A stretch of DNA of 64,000 nucleotides from Patescibacteria group bacterium. GTDB taxonomy: Bacteria > Patescibacteriota > Microgenomatia > 2-02-FULL-39-11. Below, one piece after another: positions 3,891 through 43,174 of this stretch; positions within the stretch are counted from its first letter, which is position 1, and each line of letters begins with the position of its first letter. The position numbers and the translations under genes are program-made. The DNA lies in NCBI GenBank assembly GCA_023379265.1, contig JAMCUI010000009.1:100091-164090 (forward strand), read 5' to 3'. The notes beneath the pieces were generated by a model that was not told the origin of the DNA, did not search any database, and worked only from the letters and a program-made list of their open reading frames with translations.

Positions 3891-4560
3891 TTTTATCTCC
3901 TTTCATTTGAGATAACATTCCTTTTGACAACTGGTAAACCTTTTGAGTTTTTTTGGCGATATCTTTTTCGTGGGTCACAACAATGAAAGTAGTGGAATAT
4001 TTCTTATGCAGACTTTCAAATAAACTCATTATTTTATCCGAAGTAGCTTCATCAAGGTTGCCAGTTGGTTCATCAGCTAAAACTAGTTTCGGTCGGTTGA
4101 CTAAGCTTCGAGCAATTGCTACTCGTTGTTTTTCTCCGCCACTCAGGTTATCTACGCACTTGTTTTCTTTTCCCGAAAGCCCTACTTGATCAATTAGATC
4201 TAGAATTCGTTTGTTCTTCTCGTCCTTGTCAATGTCTTTGCGAGGATAAATAGCTAAATAAATATTGTCATAAACAGATAATGAGGGGATGAGTTTAAAG
4301 TCCTGGAAGACAATACCTATATTTTTGAGACGAAACTCAGCTAGTTGTTCTTCAGAGTAGTGAGTTATATCTGAGTTGGAAAAGACAACCTTGCCACTAT
4401 CAGAAGAAACTAAACCCGCCATGATAGATAAAAGAGTTGTTTTACCTACTCCAGATTTACCGATAATGCTGACGAATTCTTTCTCTTCCAGATCAAAGCT
4501 GATTTGTTCTAAGACTTCTTGGTTGCCATAAGTTTTTGAGATCTGCTTTAAAGTCAACAT
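3883..4560 (-). CDS. ABC transporter ATP-binding protein (MacB/LolD/FtsE type)
   Basis: Walker [10 protein letters not shown], signature [15 protein letters not shown], Walker [14 protein letters not shown]-loop VVTHE. Confidence 0.9.
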
Positions 4561-5995: not shown

Positions 5996-6568
5996 ATGAA
6001 AACCAGAGAAAGCGGTATGCCAGATGAAAAGATGTGGGATACTTTTTTTGATCCGGATACCATTTTGGATAGTTTAGGCATAAAAAATCTCACAGGAAAT
6101 ATAGCTGATTTTGGTTGCGGATACGGAACATTTACTATTCCGGCAGCAAAAAGAACAAAAGGTAAGGTATATGCACTTGATATTGAAAAAGAGATGGTAC
6201 AAATAACACAGGAGAAGGCAAAGCAATCAGGTTTAAATAATGTAGTAGCAATTCAAAAGGATTTTATGACCGGTGGTACAGGACTCGCCGACTCATCCTG
6301 TGACATAGTTTTGCTTTTTAATATTCTTCATGCAGAAAATCCGTTAAATATATTGGTTGAATCAAAAAGAATTCTCACTTCAGGAGGAGCAGTAGCTATA
6401 ATTCACTGGATTCCTGATCCTACAACTCCCCGCGGACCACCGATGAGCATTCGTCCGCATCCTGAAGAAATTCAAAATTGGTTGAAAGAAGCAGGTTATA
6501 AATTAAAAAACACGATAATTCCACTTCCTCCATATCATTATGGTTTATTGGGGAAAAAGACTGATTAA
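5996..6568 (+). CDS. Class I SAM-dependent methyltransferase
   Basis: Motif I DFGCGYGTFTIPAA, acidic motif II VYALDIEKEM, post-I region. Confidence 0.75.
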   Translation: MKTRESGMPDEKMWDTFFDPDTILDSLGIKNLTGNIADFGCGYGTFTIPAAKRTKGKVYALDIEKEMVQITQEKAKQSGLNNVVAIQKDFMTGGTGLADSSCDIVLLFNILHAENPLNILVESKRILTSGGAVAIIHWIPDPTTPRGPPMSIRPHPEEIQNWLKEAGYKLKNTIIPLPPYHYGLLGKKTD

Positions 6569-23451: not shown

Positions 23452-23688
23452 GAATAGGGAAACCCTGCTGGAAAAAATCTGGTCGTATGTCTCCTGAAGA
23501 TTAAAATTAGTTTATGTAATTGACTTTACCCGGATTTACTGTTAAGGTAGCTTACGATGTCTTTTAAAAAACATGGTACCAGGAAGAAACCGCATTCATT
23601 TCTTATAAGAAAAAAAATCCATGGACGGGTGAAAGCTCTTCTTCGGAAAAGAAGAGTCAGATAGCCTTACATATATCCTATAGTCATA

Positions 23689-23718
23689 TTGACTTCATCT
23701 TCGGGTTAGTGTATAATA
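23689..23718 (+). promoter_or_regulatory. Sigma-70-type promoter (TTGACT-18-TATAAT) driving the DEAD-box helicase leader
   Basis: TTGACT at 23689-23694 and TATAAT at 23713-23718. The conserved leader element begins 12 nt downstream. Confidence 0.5.
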
Positions 23719-23729
23719 TATTCATCGGT

Positions 23730-23852
23730 AAACAGATTTAATCAATAAATCTGTTTAGATCAGATTTTGTTTTAAGCAGTTCTATAGATAAAGATACCCT
23801 AACTTTTTTTCCGTATCTTTTCCCCTTCTTAACTCACTTCTCATTTAGACAG
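23730..23852 (+). promoter_or_regulatory. Conserved ~125-nt leader element, copy A (two conserved hairpins plus conserved 3' block), at the start of a ~340-nt 5' leader
   Basis: Hairpin 1 AAACAGATTT-aatcaat-AAATCTGTTT (23730-23756). Hairpin 2 AAAGATAC-n15-GTATCTTT (23790-23820). Shared blocks CTGTTTAGATCAGAtTTTGTTTTAAGCA and TCATTTAGACAG. Second copy at 42498-42627. Confidence 0.55.
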
Positions 23853-24067
23853 TTTTCTTGGTTTAACCCGCTTTAGCGAAATTCCCCGACCCGCTTCGTC
23901 CAACCTTAAGCGAGGCAAGTCGTAAGATCGAGGGATGCAGAGACCTTTTTTCGCTTCGGCGAGGTTTACACTCTGATGAAGCGCGTTATTAAGATTACCA
24001 GACCGTTAGGTTGTGGGAGCTTCAACTGTTCCGGTGAATTACTGTTTCAGATTAATTAGAAGGAAAA

Positions 24068-25369
24068 ATGTATAAACATAATTTCCAAAAGAGATACGGC
24101 AGGTTAGGTTTTGGCGGATTCCACCGCAGACACGGTTTTAACCGACGCGGAAGTAGCGCCGGTCGAAGGATAAATGCCGTAAGCCGCAGGTCAGATATTG
24201 GCCCATCGGTGTATATAAGAAAGCGAAATAATACAGGTCTAAGGGAAAATGCCGTAAGCCGCAGAACTATTGTTGATCCCTCAAGATACATCAGTAGTGA
24301 AAATACCCAGCCTATCCAGGAAAAATATACTTCACAGCACAGTTTTGATGATTTTCCTATAGACAACAGGTTAATACAAAATATATATGCCCGCGGTTAT
24401 GAAAAGCCAACACCAATTCAGGATCAGGCGATTTTTCCCATACTGGAAGGAAGAGATGTAGTTGGTATTGCCAATACTGGCACCGGCAAAACAGCAGCAT
24501 TTCTCATCCCGGTCATAAACAAGATTTTGAATGAAAGCGCAAATAAGGTACTTATCGTCATCCCTACAAGGGAGCTGGCAGTACAGATAGATGATGAGTT
24601 CCGGGCGATATCAAAAGGTTTAGCTATCACATCACTTCTTTGTATCGGGGGAGTCAGCATCAATCGTCAGATTTTCAGCCTACAGCAAAATCCCAGTATT
24701 ATAATAGGTACTCCAGGCAGGCTAAAGGATCTTTCCCAGAGGAGATTTCTGGACCTTTCTAATTTCAAGACTATTATACTTGATGAGGTCGACAGGATGG
24801 TGGATATAGGCTTTATACAGGATATAAAGTATATTGTTTCCCTCCTTTCACGACCGCGGCAGTCACTTTTCTTTTCCGCGACAATCTCTCCCGACGTTGG
24901 TAGTATTATACAGTCGTTTCTTACAAATCCTGTCACGATAAAAGTAAAAGTGCAAGAAACTTTGCCCCAGATAGAACAGGATGTGATAAGGGTAAGGGAT
25001 AAGAATGAAAAGCTTCAGAAATTGGACGAAATGCTTCGTCAGGAGGAGTTCAAAAAAGTGCTTATATTCGGTAGGACCAAGTGGGGAGTGGAAAGACTGT
25101 CTAGGTCGCTGCAACAGAAAGGCTTCAATGCAGCATCCATTCACGGGAATAAGTCACTAAATCAGCGTCTGCGGGTACTAACGCAGTTTAAGCTGAACCA
25201 GCTGCATATTCTGGTGGCAACAGATGTAGCGGCAAGAGGACTTGACATAGAGAATGTGTCACATGTGATAAATTTTGACGAGCCTTCTTCTTATACAGAT
25301 TATGTGCATAGGATTGGCAGAACCGGTAGGGCGCAGAAATCTGGGAAGGCGCTGACGTTTGTGGGTTAG
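24068..25369 (+). CDS. DEAD-box ATP-dependent RNA helicase with Arg-rich N-terminal extension
   Basis: Q-motif ...YEKPTPIQ. Motif I ANTGTGKT, Ia PTRELA, II DEVD, III SAT, VI HRIGRTGRAQ. The ~100-aa N-terminal R-rich extension contains a 25-aa tandem repeat. Confidence 0.9.
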   Translation: MYKHNFQKRYGRLGFGGFHRRHGFNRRGSSAGRRINAVSRRSDIGPSVYIRKRNNTGLRENAVSRRTIVDPSRYISSENTQPIQEKYTSQHSFDDFPIDNRLIQNIYARGYEKPTPIQDQAIFPILEGRDVVGIANTGTGKTAAFLIPVINKILNESANKVLIVIPTRELAVQIDDEFRAISKGLAITSLLCIGGVSINRQIFSLQQNPSIIIGTPGRLKDLSQRRFLDLSNFKTIILDEVDRMVDIGFIQDIKYIVSLLSRPRQSLFFSATISPDVGSIIQSFLTNPVTIKVKVQETLPQIEQDVIRVRDKNEKLQKLDEMLRQEEFKKVLIFGRTKWGVERLSRSLQQKGFNAASIHGNKSLNQRLRVLTQFKLNQLHILVATDVAARGLDIENVSHVINFDEPSSYTDYVHRIGRTGRAQKSGKALTFVG

Positions 25370-25449: not shown

Positions 25450-26445
25450 TTGACCAGATTTTTCCTTATGAATACTGCTTTTCATTTTCAAGACGAGTCA
25501 TTATGGGAAGAATTTGCTGCACTGAAAAAATCCGCAGACATAAAAAGGAACGATGCTCTTAAAAAAAGAATTACCTATCAGCCCCGCGCTACGGATTTGG
25601 AGTTTTTACTTGGTGCATTTATGGAGATGTATGAGTTTCATTTGCACGGTATAATCCATAAACTTATTGCAAAGGGATATGCAGTTGATGCTTCATCCGG
25701 CTTCGGCGGAAAAAATTCTGAATTCCAGATGTTAACAGGAGAGTTTTCTATAGATTTTGTCACCAAAAATAAGCTGGAAAAGATGGGTGTGAAATTCCGG
25801 GAGTTTAACGGCATGAAATCGCTTGTCTTTTGGCCTCAGAAAGCGACGATTGATGATATAAAGGGAGACTGGATGAAGGTCGTAAATGCGCTTCCAGATA
25901 AAGGGAAATTGGTTTTCCCGTCTTCAAGCGCTGAGGCCGTTTCTTTCCGGAGAAAATATGTTCCCAAGGATTCAAATCTGCAGAAAGAAAGACTTTTTGA
26001 GAAATTAAAGTTCAGTATTCAGCAAAGAGTATATTCCGAGACTAAAAAGAGGCAAAAGGAAAGCCCGCGTCCCGATAAAATAGAAATAATGCTTGGCTTT
26101 TTTATAGAGGAGATAGAACCTCAGGTAAGGCAGGCGGTTATTAGCATGAATAAAAAGGGTTATTCTACTGACAGATCAGGATTTTCTGATAATCCGTGTG
26201 AACAAATAGTGGAAGGTGATTTTCGAGTTGGTGAAGAAACAGTAAAAATGTTGGAGGATGTAGGAGTACAATTGGAAACAAATCCCAGCGGTTACACCAG
26301 AATGAAATTCTTACCGTTGGAGGCGGATATACCCAAAATCAAGAAGCAATGGGATAAAATAGTTTCTCTATTACCGAATAAAAATCAGACTGCATCATTC
26401 TCCATGACCAGAAAAGCCAGGGAATTCAGGTTGTCATATCAGTGA
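25450..26445 (+). CDS. Hypothetical cytoplasmic protein composed of two homologous ~140-aa repeats
   Basis: Internal duplication visible by eye: KGYAVDASSGFGG...MKSLVFWPQKATIDDIKGDWMKVVNALPDK versus KGYSTDRSGFSDN...TRMKFLPLEADIPKIKKQWDKIVSLLPNK. Confidence 0.5.
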   Translation: MTRFFLMNTAFHFQDESLWEEFAALKKSADIKRNDALKKRITYQPRATDLEFLLGAFMEMYEFHLHGIIHKLIAKGYAVDASSGFGGKNSEFQMLTGEFSIDFVTKNKLEKMGVKFREFNGMKSLVFWPQKATIDDIKGDWMKVVNALPDKGKLVFPSSSAEAVSFRRKYVPKDSNLQKERLFEKLKFSIQQRVYSETKKRQKESPRPDKIEIMLGFFIEEIEPQVRQAVISMNKKGYSTDRSGFSDNPCEQIVEGDFRVGEETVKMLEDVGVQLETNPSGYTRMKFLPLEADIPKIKKQWDKIVSLLPNKNQTASFSMTRKAREFRLSYQ

Positions 26446-31808: not shown

Positions 31809-32227
31809 AATCCGTTTGTACTATCTTGAGATTTATCGATGTTATTAATACTGTTTAGATCGGTATCTGTTTGATTGATGGCTTGTTGCATAGTAGTGTC
31901 TGTGTTATTTAGCGTCTGATCAACATTTGAGGAAGTTATTGGGGTAACAGCTGGGGTAGTAATAGCAGTCGGATAAACTGCCACTGGTAAACTTGTTGGT
32001 TGCGGATTCACGGTTGTCTGCGTTTTTTTACCACTCATCATCAAAGTGTAACTTCCGGCAACAAAAAGAATAAGGACAATAAGAGCTAAAATGATATAAA
32101 TATGCTTTTGATTCCTAGGTTTTGCAGGATTTTGTGCAGTTGCAACCGGCGTTTCTTGAGGAGGATTTGATGGAGCATCTTGTGGGATGTTTGGTGTGGG
32201 TGAAGGGTTGGCAGATTGTGTTTCCAT
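31805..32227 (-). CDS. Pro/Thr-rich single-pass membrane protein (cytoplasmic Pro-rich N-terminus, extracellular Thr/Asn-rich C-terminus)
   Basis: 140 aa. TM IYIILALIVLILFVAGSYTLMM. 4-nt overlap with the downstream coiled-coil gene. Confidence 0.4.
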   Translation of the reverse strand: METQSANPSPTPNIPQDAPSNPPQETPVATAQNPAKPRNQKHIYIILALIVLILFVAGSYTLMMSGKKTQTTVNPQPTSLPVAVYPTAITTPAVTPITSSNVDQTLNNTDTTMQQAINQTDTDLNSINNIDKSQDSTNGL

Positions 32228-41237: not shown

Positions 41238-42383
41238 TCATTGTGGTACGACTATTTGGTCTCCGGCGGACAGACCATATGTGACTTCACTTTTTGTCAG
41301 TCCTCTGAGGCCCAGTTTTACCTCTATCAGTTTGTTACCATGGTTTGCTTTTTCCACGTACGTTTTTTCGTCATTTGTGGTAATTGCGTTATTGGGTACA
41401 GTAAGGATATTTGATTTGTCGGCTATAATTATGGTTACAGAGGCAGTCATATTAGGTTTGACATCTGGGGAAAGCTTATCCGCCGATATGCGTATGTTGT
41501 ACGTTACTGATCCCTGTATTTTTGTTCCAACAGTATCAATTCCAGTTACGGTTCCGGTAAATTTCTGGTCGGGAAGCGCATCAAAAACTATTTCTGCCAG
41601 CTGTCCGATTTTTATCTTGGGTATGTTGACTTCATTGAGTGAAGCATATAGGTATGGATTTTCCAGATTGGCAATTACAAGGACTGGTGAAGTAGCCAAT
41701 GATGAAATTTGATCACCATTTTTCACCAGTAAGTTGGTGACTGAACCGGAAATCGGAGCATTTACCGTGACACTTTGCGTCTCATTGTACGTCTGTAGGC
41801 TGGATGAGAGGGCCGCCTGATCTTTTGCCAGGACACTTTGCTGATTTTTGTAATTGGCTTCCGCGGCTAACCAATCATCCTGAGCAGTGGTAAACTCAGG
41901 GAGTACTCTATTGATTGATTTGGGAGAACCGTCGGAATTCTGGTAAGTGGAGTTTTCCGCTAAATCAGTAAATTTCTTCCAGGCGGCATACATAGTTGAC
42001 TGTAGAGTATAAAGCTCAGCAGTATCAGCATCCAATGTGGATTTGTCAGCTAAATATGCGGCATACGCGGCTTTTTTTTCTTTGTCAGTAGCCGTGCTTT
42101 CCACATTAAATAGTGGGTTACCTTTTTTCACGTTCTGATTATTATCCACGTAAAGCCCGGTAATAATGCCGTTGGTTGGAGAAGAGATAGATGTTTGTGA
42201 AGAAATGGTATATGTAGCATTTGCCAGTACGCTGGTTTGGAGATTTTCTCGTTTTAAGGTATAGACTGAATCAGTTTGAGCAGGTCGTAAAAGAATTACC
42301 ATTACAATGATAAAGAGGAGGACAAAAATTCCCAAAATTAGATACCATTTTTTTGACTTTAGAAAAGAGACGGTTCTGGCCAT
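41238..42383 (-). CDS. HlyD/MacA-like periplasmic adaptor
   Basis: TM YLILGIFVLLFIIVMVILL, coiled-coil and beta-barrel regions. Start placed at internal Met (MARTVSF...). The longer ORF to 42569 would run through the promoter and leader of the divergent RRM gene. Confidence 0.65.
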   Translation of the reverse strand: MARTVSFLKSKKWYLILGIFVLLFIIVMVILLRPAQTDSVYTLKRENLQTSVLANATYTISSQTSISSPTNGIITGLYVDNNQNVKKGNPLFNVESTATDKEKKAAYAAYLADKSTLDADTAELYTLQSTMYAAWKKFTDLAENSTYQNSDGSPKSINRVLPEFTTAQDDWLAAEANYKNQQSVLAKDQAALSSSLQTYNETQSVTVNAPISGSVTNLLVKNGDQISSLATSPVLVIANLENPYLYASLNEVNIPKIKIGQLAEIVFDALPDQKFTGTVTGIDTVGTKIQGSVTYNIRISADKLSPDVKPNMTASVTIIIADKSNILTVPNNAITTNDEKTYVEKANHGNKLIEVKLGLRGLTKSEVTYGLSAGDQIVVPQ

Positions 42384-42460
42384 ATTTATTATCTTAACAT
42401 GAATATTATTATATTGAATTAGATCTAAGTGAAAAAGCGTGGTTTCAATACTATCCTTTG

Positions 42461-42489
42461 TTGTTTTATGTTGCAGAATATGATATAAT
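42461..42489 (+). promoter_or_regulatory. Sigma-70 promoter with extended -10 (TTGTTT-17-TGaTATAAT) for the RRM gene leader
   Basis: TATAAT at 42484-42489, preceded by TG. Leader element starts 9 nt downstream. Confidence 0.45.
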
Positions 42490-42497
42490 GCGTCTAT

Positions 42498-42627
42498 AAA
42501 CAGATTTAAGCCAATAGATCTGTTTAGATCAGAATTTGTTTTAAGCAAGCCAAAGATAAAGATACTCAATTCATATTTCTTTTTTTCGTATCTTTTCCTC
42601 TTCTTATTTCATCTCTCATTTAAACAG
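42498..42627 (+). promoter_or_regulatory. Conserved leader element, copy B (same two hairpins and blocks as 23730-23852)
   Basis: Hairpin 1 AAACAGAT-n12-ATCTGTTT (42498-42525). Hairpin 2 AAAGATAC-n22-GTATCTTT (42558-42595). Blocks CTGTTTAGATCAGAaTTTGTTTTAAGCA and TCATTTAAACAG. Confidence 0.55.
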
Positions 42628-42844
42628 CTATATTTGCTTAAGTCGCGGAAGTAATATCATAATCAGTATTCGGCTGAAAGAATAAATAGGCGAATAGATA
42701 CCTGTAGAGTCACTTTTTTACAGACTTACAATTGGTTTCAGTTTTAGTACCGTTTTTCTTTTGGTTGTTTGATATAATTTTGCTTCTGAAATTATTAATT
42801 ATTTCTTATCCTTTTTAAGGATAAGAGTAAAAGGAGTTATCAAA

Positions 42845-43174
42845 ATGGCAAAGAACCTTTTTGTAGGAAGTCTTCCCTTCTCAGTTACTGAAGACGCGGT
42901 CGGACAACTGTTTGCAAAATACGGACAGGTACAGTCAGTCAATGTAATAAAGGACAAATATACCGGTAAAAGCCGTGGATTTGGCTTTGTGGAAATGAGT
43001 ACGGAGGAGGAAGCACAAAAAGCCATACAAGGCCTCAATAACTATAACCTTGAGGGCAGAAATATAATCGTCAAGGAAGCCTTACCAAAGCCGACTTATA
43101 CGGATGGCAGAGGAAGTGATAGTAGAGGTAGACGAAGTTTCGGCTTTGGCGGCAGACCTCAGAGAAGGTATTAA
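42845..43174 (+). CDS. RRM-type RNA-binding protein with Arg/Gly-rich tail
   Basis: RNP-2 LFVGSL. RNP-1 RGFGFVEM. C-terminal GRGSDSRGRRSFGFGGRPQRR. Confidence 0.85.
   Translation: MAKNLFVGSLPFSVTEDAVGQLFAKYGQVQSVNVIKDKYTGKSRGFGFVEMSTEEEAQKAIQGLNNYNLEGRNIIVKEALPKPTYTDGRGSDSRGRRSFGFGGRPQRRY

Follow-up and report, generated by a model that had tools for sequence, protein, structure and literature searches.

How is the gene of a small RNA-binding protein controlled in a member of the Patescibacteria, and what does the long stretch between its promoter and its start codon contribute? Patescibacteria are uncultured bacteria with tiny genomes and few recognisable regulators, and to our knowledge almost nothing is known about their gene control. 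The window analysed here is a stretch of 64,000 nucleotides (64 kb) from a Patescibacteria genome. An original prediction, made from the letters alone, had described its positions 42461-42844 as the second copy of a leader element, followed by a hairpin that abuts the Shine-Dalgarno (SD) sequence of a gene for an RRM protein and has the geometry of an RNA thermometer or translational gate. The region is laid out as follows.

42461-42489, plus strand: distal promoter P1 of the RRM gene (sequence reading)
42497-42648, plus strand: leader element copy B, a rod-like imperfect hairpin (model match of 141.3 bits, MFE fold, covariation on 52-55 instances)
42503-42516 with 42631-42644, plus strand: basal helix of copy B
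42520-42529 (CTGTTTAGAT) with 42618-42627 (ATTTAAACAG), plus strand: central helix of copy B
42558-42565 (AAAGATAC) with 42588-42595 (GTATCTTT), plus strand: apical hairpin of copy B
42500-42508 (ACAGATTTA) with 42515-42523 (TAGATCTGT), plus strand: likely alternative 5'-terminal hairpin (fold I) in copy B
42649-42802, plus strand: AT-rich linker of ~150 nt seen in this lineage (linkers in relatives: 25-135 nt)
42803-42827, plus strand: stable SD-proximal hairpin, core CTTATCCTT-TTT-AAGGATAAG at 42805-42825
42830-42836, plus strand: Shine-Dalgarno sequence AAAGGAG; 42845-42847, RRM start codon ATG (sequence reading)
42845-43174, plus strand: the regulated gene, encoding an RRM (RRM_1) Gly/Arg-tailed RNA-binding protein of 109 aa

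The window RRM protein is identical residue for residue to one on contig JAMDBJ010000004.1 (GCA_023487465.1, Patescibacteria group bacterium), and the named organisms nearest to it are Candidatus Gottesmanbacteria.

In promoter P1, the -35 box TTGTTT (42461-42466) is separated by a 17-nt spacer from a perfect extended -10 box, TGATATAAT (42481-42489). Because TTGTTT agrees with TTGACA at just three of six positions, P1 was missing from a consensus promoter scan. The first base of the element lies 8 nt past the end of the -10 box. Read from the promoter sequence, transcription would start near 42495, with 42497-42648 as the 5'-terminal part of the RRM mRNA. The linker contains another exact TGATATAAT at 42770-42778, 25 nt 5' of the SD-proximal hairpin, and could represent a proximal promoter P2 giving a short leader with the hairpin alone. 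The motif occurs three times in the window, twice in the region 5' of the RRM gene, a count that is not significant alone as 14 of 100 shuffles reach it.

On the opposite strand, a long ORF (41238-42569) overlaps the copy B promoter and 73 nt at the 5' end of the element, and it had been proposed that the HlyD gene starts at the internal Met at 42383 instead. The shorter gene is supported. HlyD homologues of 367-400 aa cover no more than 86% (381/443 residues) of the long ORF, the NCBI annotation gives an HlyD-family protein of 381 aa, and a minus-strand promoter-like site matching 10 of 12 consensus positions lies at 42435-42408, inside the supposed extension. The protein read from 42383 carries MARTVSFLKSKKWYLILGIFVLLF..., a typical N-terminal membrane anchor. 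The long ORF is an artefact, and the corrected feature is as follows.

41238-42383, minus strand: HlyD-family (periplasmic adaptor) gene, corrected start at 42383, 381 aa

A repeat search located the other copy of the element, copy A, at about 23740-23870. Alignment of 23680-24075 with 42440-42855 showed that the two copies share a core of ~150 nt with roughly 85% identity and diverge beyond it.

23677-23717, plus strand: copy A promoter, with a CCTATAGT box at 23677-23684, the -35 box TTGACT at 23689-23694, a 17-nt spacer and the -10 box TATAAT at 23712-23717
23729-23873, plus strand: leader element copy A, 5' of a DEAD-box helicase gene (24068-25369), model match of 136.9 bits

A covariance model was built from five instances, namely both window copies and the loci of three closely related RRM homologues at 81-86% identity, each with the element directly 5' of the gene. 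In the window the model matched only copy B (141.3 bits, E 1.5e-29) and copy A (136.9 bits), so that the predicted second copy of a common leader behind its own promoter, TTGTTT-17-TGATATAAT, was recovered. A third partial repeat at 31846-31872 was unmatched by the model and is treated as chance.

To find further members, metagenomes were scanned with the pattern ATCTGTTTARAT...ATTTARRCAG, which represents both strands of the central helix. The scan gave at least 120 stretches, of which 80 were taken as loci, and the model run on these pattern-selected loci yielded at least 52 distinct full-length instances at 57-151 bits. Altogether, the element is present at at least 55 further distinct metagenomic or genomic places beyond the window, with member scores of 50-151 bits. 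As the scan pattern fixes the central helix by design, we picked five more RRM homologues by protein only. All five, four of them from named Gottesmanbacteria, carry the element with the same central helix; thus, all eight protein-selected close RRM homologues possess it and the central helix is invariant in all eight. By contrast, the model matched none of 80 loci of more distant RRM genes (at most 60% identity, including six other Patescibacteria), a set that came from an RRM-protein-guided scan of genome contigs and was saturated by the generic RGFGFVEM pattern. With filters off, the element was likewise absent from a Gottesmanbacteria RRM locus (58% identity), Curtissbacteria, Daviesbacteria, and three other Patescibacteria loci. 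Its presence in close and absence from distant RRM loci show that the family belongs to a subgroup of the Gottesmanbacteria, which are ultra-small bacteria of groundwater.

No Rfam 15 family matches either copy at E values up to 10, apart from weak matches to unrelated families (best E=0.28), and at Rfam gathering thresholds the whole window contains only a tRNA elsewhere. Literature searches retrieved no description of the motif. Judged by sequence and predicted structure, the ~145-nt rod-shaped leader is a previously undescribed RNA family within a known kind, the structured 5' leaders of RNA-chaperone and cold-shock genes.

Single-sequence folds of both copies and RNAalifold all give one long imperfect hairpin. 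In the model-fitted alignment of 52 sequences, 90.9% of the cells pair and 26 of the 46 pairs change on both sides (157 cells); none of 500 shuffles attained any of five measures, and pairing fell to 33-51% when the partners were slid by 1-3 columns. Since a model-fitted alignment leans towards its own model, we realigned 55 sequences with the structure-blind program MAFFT. From this alignment RNAalifold again derived the basal, central, and apical helices, with compensatory changes at 12 pairs. Among scan-selected instances, the search pattern itself accounts for part of the invariance of the central helix, as it fixed this helix. The apical AGAUAAAGAUAC/GUAUCUUU lies outside the search pattern, yet is conserved in 45-51 of the 52 instances. 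Over the instances, forward scores of 57-151 bits stand against reverse scores of 30-61 bits (42-46 bits for the window copies), and G-U pairs are frequent in the rod. Taken together, the much higher forward scores and the common G-U pairs indicate that the element functions at the RNA level, on the same strand as the gene downstream.

These data also bear on whether the feature belongs to the DNA, as a miniature inverted-repeat mobile element or a long palindromic protein-binding site. A long inverted repeat that occurs twice in 64 kb, is intergenic and precedes several unrelated genes would fit such an origin. However, its orientation is fixed relative to promoter and gene, its gene partners are specific, strand scores are asymmetric with common G-U pairs, and compensatory changes keep the RNA pairing. 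Furthermore, the window copies are 75% identical to each other compared with 73-78% to copies elsewhere, and the nearest neighbours among element copies mostly belong to the same gene class. Copies within a genome being no more alike than copies between genomes, together with clustering by gene class, argues against recent transposition, and we consider a DNA-level feature hardly credible. A riboswitch was also considered. The model describes a single unbranched rod with no branch points, not a multi-helix junction or ligand pocket, and the genes downstream are mostly RNA-binding or RNA-remodelling, not metabolic or transport genes.

The genes behind the element fall into few families. The prediction that it should recur upstream of RRM and DEAD-box genes in related genomes was borne out, with 20 RRM genes (15+5) and 24 DEAD-box helicase genes. 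The remainder comprises three genes for ~330-aa proteins, three for ~80-aa Cys-rich proteins, three for proteins with a SHSVDIKDISNxFI motif (one complete at 147 aa, the other two cut by contig ends), one for a Fic protein, and one for an ABC ATPase. The three recurrent families other than RRM proteins and helicases have no Pfam match. In every case, the element is oriented towards the next gene. In the window, a 331-aa ORF without Pfam match (25450-26445, plus strand) lies 80 nt downstream of the DEAD-box gene, with which it probably shares a transcript. Its homologues at loci L099, L137, and L168 each lie directly behind their own leader copy, which makes this family a member of the regulon. 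Thus, the leader family marks a small RNA-remodelling regulon of RRM, DEAD-box, ~330-aa, small Cys-rich, and a few other proteins. At L101/L149 and L135, the first ORF after the element encodes a conserved 79-82-aa protein with a zinc-ribbon-like CxxC...CPDxEC pattern. L167 bears two copies: a full one (3920-4065, minus strand) in front of a gene for a Fic-domain protein with an N-terminal HTH-like region, and a shortened one (6081-6181, minus strand, 44 bits) ~600 nt before a DEAD-box gene.

Could the element instead be a small RNA, separate or derived from the 5' UTR, that acts in trans, so that its position before RRM and helicase genes is secondary? Its own strong promoter and stable stand-alone rod shape are compatible with this, as are L170 and L145, where no same-strand ORF is found in the ~300 nt available. 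Against it, no terminator follows the element, a start codon lies 3-10 nt after it in most helicase leaders, and the same few gene families are found downstream in more than 90% of assessable cases. A trans-acting role is therefore improbable, and a cis-acting leader remains the preferred reading.

The 5' end of the leader has a second way to fold. Starting 3 nt into the element, ACAGAUUUA can pair with UAAAUCUGU over 9 bp (fold I), and as UAAAUCUGU shares bases with the 5' strands of both the basal and the central helix, fold I and the rod are mutually exclusive. Of 58 instances, 43 can form the full 9 bp, and 95.7% of fold I cells pair. An ACA near the 5' end is unpaired in the rod yet 88-96% conserved. 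Pair 9 of fold I is mostly A-U, G-C in nine instances that probably represent one clade and thus few evolutionary events, G-U in a few, and never A-C, while L113 and L146 have A-U in place of U-A at pair 8; the covariation of fold I consists of these two pairs only. The conservation and covariation of its letters make an alternative 5' hairpin likely. In the competing fold II, the ~46-bp rod, CUGUUUARAU is paired with AUUUARRCAG and the flanks are zipped; formation of fold I would free the 3' half. The short natural variants L213 (1331-1441) and L214 (1354-1442) lack the apical hairpin and have 9 or 12 nt in place of 43 or 68 model positions. The apical hairpin is thus dispensable in these two, and the core consists of the basal and central helices and the 5' hairpin.

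In thermodynamic models the rod is the more stable fold, by 4-20 kcal/mol, whether at 10 or at 37°C. When 17 minimal leaders were folded under constraints, start-site accessibility did not differ systematically between folds I and II, and masking of the SD or AUG by the rod or by the freed 3' strand was rejected, as accessibility did not change consistently among these leaders. Since the thermodynamic models contain neither a temperature switch nor start-site masking, any switch must be kinetic or protein-driven. Fold I would form first during transcription, with the rod as the thermodynamically favoured end state, and the balance between the two would set translation and/or mRNA lifetime. Low temperature, or scarcity of the encoded chaperone or helicase, would slow the conversion from fold I to fold II. 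Slowed conversion could in turn lead to induction by cold or RNA-folding stress with negative feedback, as in cspA-type leaders, and by this analogy the leader genes would be cold-induced.

With moderate confidence, we explain the locus as a whole by a structured cis-acting leader family with a two-fold switch that serves an RNA-chaperone (cold-shock-like) regulon, with the SD-proximal hairpin as an insulator. The more specific idea that the leader senses RNA-folding capacity, being expressed in fold I and converted to a silent rod by the RRM chaperone and the DEAD-box helicase, is possible but tentative. The main rival holds that the rod is a static site without conformational switch, either for recognition by a protein (an operator) or for processing by RNase III. 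In the central and apical helices, the sequence of each strand is conserved beyond the needs of pairing, and a rod of ~46 bp matches the substrate length of RNase III. The stable hairpins that 8 of 11 long RRM leaders carry immediately 5' of the SD could shield a cleaved mRNA from 5'-to-3' decay, and the encoded proteins bind RNA, with the RRM protein, the helicase, or another factor as candidates for operator binding. However, a static site leaves unexplained the conserved ACA, which is unpaired in the rod, and the covarying pairs 8 and 9 of the 5' hairpin, and the apical hairpin is dispensable in L213 and L214. We regard this alternative as rather unlikely; it is compatible with the two-fold leader and not strictly exclusive of it.

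The position of the rod relative to the start codon differs between genes. Of 23 helicase leaders, 16 have the AUG 3-17 nt past the model end, most without an SD, and helicase AUGs near the rod open a conserved N-terminus, M[YF]xx[SN]F. In four RRM leaders, 25-29 nt separate the element from the AUG and the rod base lies ~12 nt before the SD. These short distances imply that in minimal leaders the base of the rod abuts the initiation region. The window copies are atypical, with linkers of 194-196 nt to the start codon, and at a distance of ~195 nt the rods of copies A and B are unlikely to exert direct steric control over initiation. Counted from the last base pair of the rod, the AUG of most DEAD-box genes (L133, L159, L113, L096, L132, L163, and others) follows after 7-14 nt and no SD is recognisable, unlike the RRM genes of the same organisms, which have a strong AAGGAG. 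The copy A linker (23874-24060) is GC-rich and strongly folded. GC-rich modules (40-49% GC in genomes of ~30% GC) also occur between rod and SD in some other leaders, including L144, L110, and L217, where they are closed by a CCGCC...GGCGG-type stem; they may constitute a second RNA module that is optional.

The hairpin next to the RRM start had been described as a perfect 8-bp stem at about 42808-42828. The hairpin itself is real, while its position and size needed revision: it lies 2-3 nt further left and comprises 9-11 bp with a 3-nt loop, CTTATCCTT (42805-42813) pairing with AAGGATAAG (42817-42825) across TTT and the stem extending to 11 pairs over 42803-42827. It is also conserved, as the same CUUAUCC/GGAUAAG stem recurs in L086, L088, and L213 with compensatory changes in the upper part and different loops. 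More generally, 8 of the 11 RRM leaders with linkers of at least 40 nt have a stable hairpin that ends 2-7 nt before the SD, often of unrelated sequence; the SD-proximal hairpins of RRM leaders reach z = -1.7 to -4.8 against shuffles. In the four RRM leaders with short linkers, no SD-proximal hairpin was found.

The proposal that this hairpin is a thermometer or translational gate did not hold up. In favour of the idea, the hairpin lies 2-4 nt from the SD, the UCCUU of its 5' arm could in principle pair with the AAGGA of the SD instead of the AAGGA of its own 3' arm, and for L216 the fold prediction pairs part of the SD. However, the SD and the AUG at 42845 are both outside the stem, and melting in a physiological range is not predicted, the modelled free energy rising from -15.9 kcal/mol (15°C) through -11.1 (37°C) to -3.8 (70°C). 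In these predictions the stem persists from 5 to 70°C, its unpaired probability staying at or below 0.05 over 5-45°C, and over the same 5-45°C predicted SD accessibility is nearly flat. In addition, the hairpins of relatives at this position are unrelated sequences without an anti-SD, and four RRM leaders have none. With SD and AUG outside a stem that is too stable to melt and SD accessibility nearly constant, the hairpin is not an RNA thermometer, and a role as temperature-dependent or other translational gate is very improbable. Its most likely role is not that of a sensor but of an insulator, shielding the SD from upstream structure, or of a 5' stabiliser that blocks 5'-to-3' decay, and the SD would stay open. 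It shares with the SD-masking thermometers of the ROSE and fourU type the presence of a short hairpin near the ribosome-binding site, but leaves SD and AUG outside the stem and is far too stable for physiological melting. The leaders of ompA and aprE contain 5' stabiliser stem-loops of bacterial mRNAs. Like these, the window hairpin is a stable stem-loop just 5' of a strong, free SD, its stabilising role here being putative, and unlike them it is one module of a larger conserved leader.

The family as a whole resembles several known systems. The cspA-type leaders of Escherichia coli and its relatives are long 5' UTRs that act as thermosensors and are subject to feedback by Csp RNA chaperones. 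The leaders described here are likewise long structured 5' UTRs before an RNA-chaperone gene, with possible alternative folds and a leader common to a functional class, and feedback by the encoded RNA chaperone is plausible by analogy. They differ in having no sequence or structure homology to cspA-type leaders (no Rfam match), in preceding RRM and DEAD-box genes and not cold-shock-domain genes, and in forming a single long rod, and the Gottesmanbacteria leader models show two exclusive folds but no temperature or accessibility switch. The Chlorobi-RRM motif is an RRM-associated RNA motif found by comparative genomics. It too is a conserved structured RNA directly 5' of RRM genes in one bacterial lineage, whereas the Gottesmanbacteria motif has no Rfam model match and also precedes helicase and other genes. 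In Bacteroides, the RRM-1 proteins encoded by rbpA/B/C are cold-adaptation factors with 5' UTRs of 122-155 nt and feedback at transcriptional and post-transcriptional levels (preprint, PMC13370968). This cold role and these leaders make the cold-shock analogy reasonable. For cyanobacterial rbp genes, 5' UTRs of RRM-protein genes are the subject of Ehira et al. (2005), as that work is listed in PMC4152365. The cyanobacterial and Bacteroides genes share with ours single-RRM proteins with a Gly/Arg tail and leaders of more than 100 nt, but, compared by description only, those leaders are not reported as one defined structure common with DEAD-box genes.

An RNA with more than 55 instances and compensatory changes unites RRM genes, DEAD-box genes, and three families of unknown function into a testable regulon, with functions predicted for its unknown members. 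It adds a third lineage, after cyanobacteria and Bacteroides, with long regulatory leaders on RRM genes and supports the idea that RRM proteins fill the role that cold-shock-domain proteins have elsewhere. If the leader indeed senses RNA-folding capacity, bacteria with minimal genomes would tune their entire RNA-remodelling machinery through a single RNA shape. The family would then also be the first class of cis-regulatory RNA to be defined in Patescibacteria, and the ~330-aa family (including ORF 25450-26445), the 80-aa Cys-rich proteins, and the 147-aa protein would be assigned to RNA metabolism or cold adaptation. In practical terms, the start of the HlyD-family gene is corrected, and the covariance model can serve to annotate genomes of this kind.

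The promoters of the family suggest a second, transcriptional layer of control. In nearly all instances other than copy B, a TTGACx/TATAAT-type promoter precedes the element, with the sigma-70-type -10 box ending 5-11 nt before it. In 25 of 55 family promoters, a CCTATAGT box (core palindrome CTATAG) lies 2-5 nt 5' of the -35 hexamer. The fetched loci, 479 kb in all, contain CCTATAGT 29 times, in 24 cases with an element no more than 100 nt downstream, and the box is probably a transcription-factor site, as yet putative, for the same regulon. Within the 64-kb window it is found once, in the copy A promoter; copy B has only a degenerate TATCCTTTGT at about 42452-42461. In L144, L126, L133, and L213, for example, CCTATAGT lies 38-59 nt before the element.

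Several further candidates and neighbouring features were noted. Additional mimics of a central-helix strand near the SD (CTGTTTCAGAT at 24041-24051 in the copy A leader and ATTTCAGACAG in L139) were discarded, as their number does not exceed that in shuffled linkers (P = 0.40 and 0.12). The pyrimidine tract UCUUUUCCUCUUCUU was rejected as an anti-SD because it is the reverse of the SD and not its reverse complement. The near-identical strains L001-L005, considered for a test of coding versus RNA constraint, have no substitutions in the region except one in L005 and were uninformative. A 79-aa ORF antisense to the RRM gene (42799-43038, minus strand), which overlaps the RRM coding sequence and the hairpin, is almost certainly spurious. 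Downstream of the window RRM gene lies a gene for a Pif1-type helicase on the opposite strand, and the window has no counterpart of a small ORF of 66-90 aa that follows the RRM gene after 12-45 nt in several relatives. This ORF, which has no Pfam match, is located at 1874-2107 in L213, 1854-2084 in L214, 1858-2118 in L216, 1887-2087 in L217, and 2333-2572 in L091.
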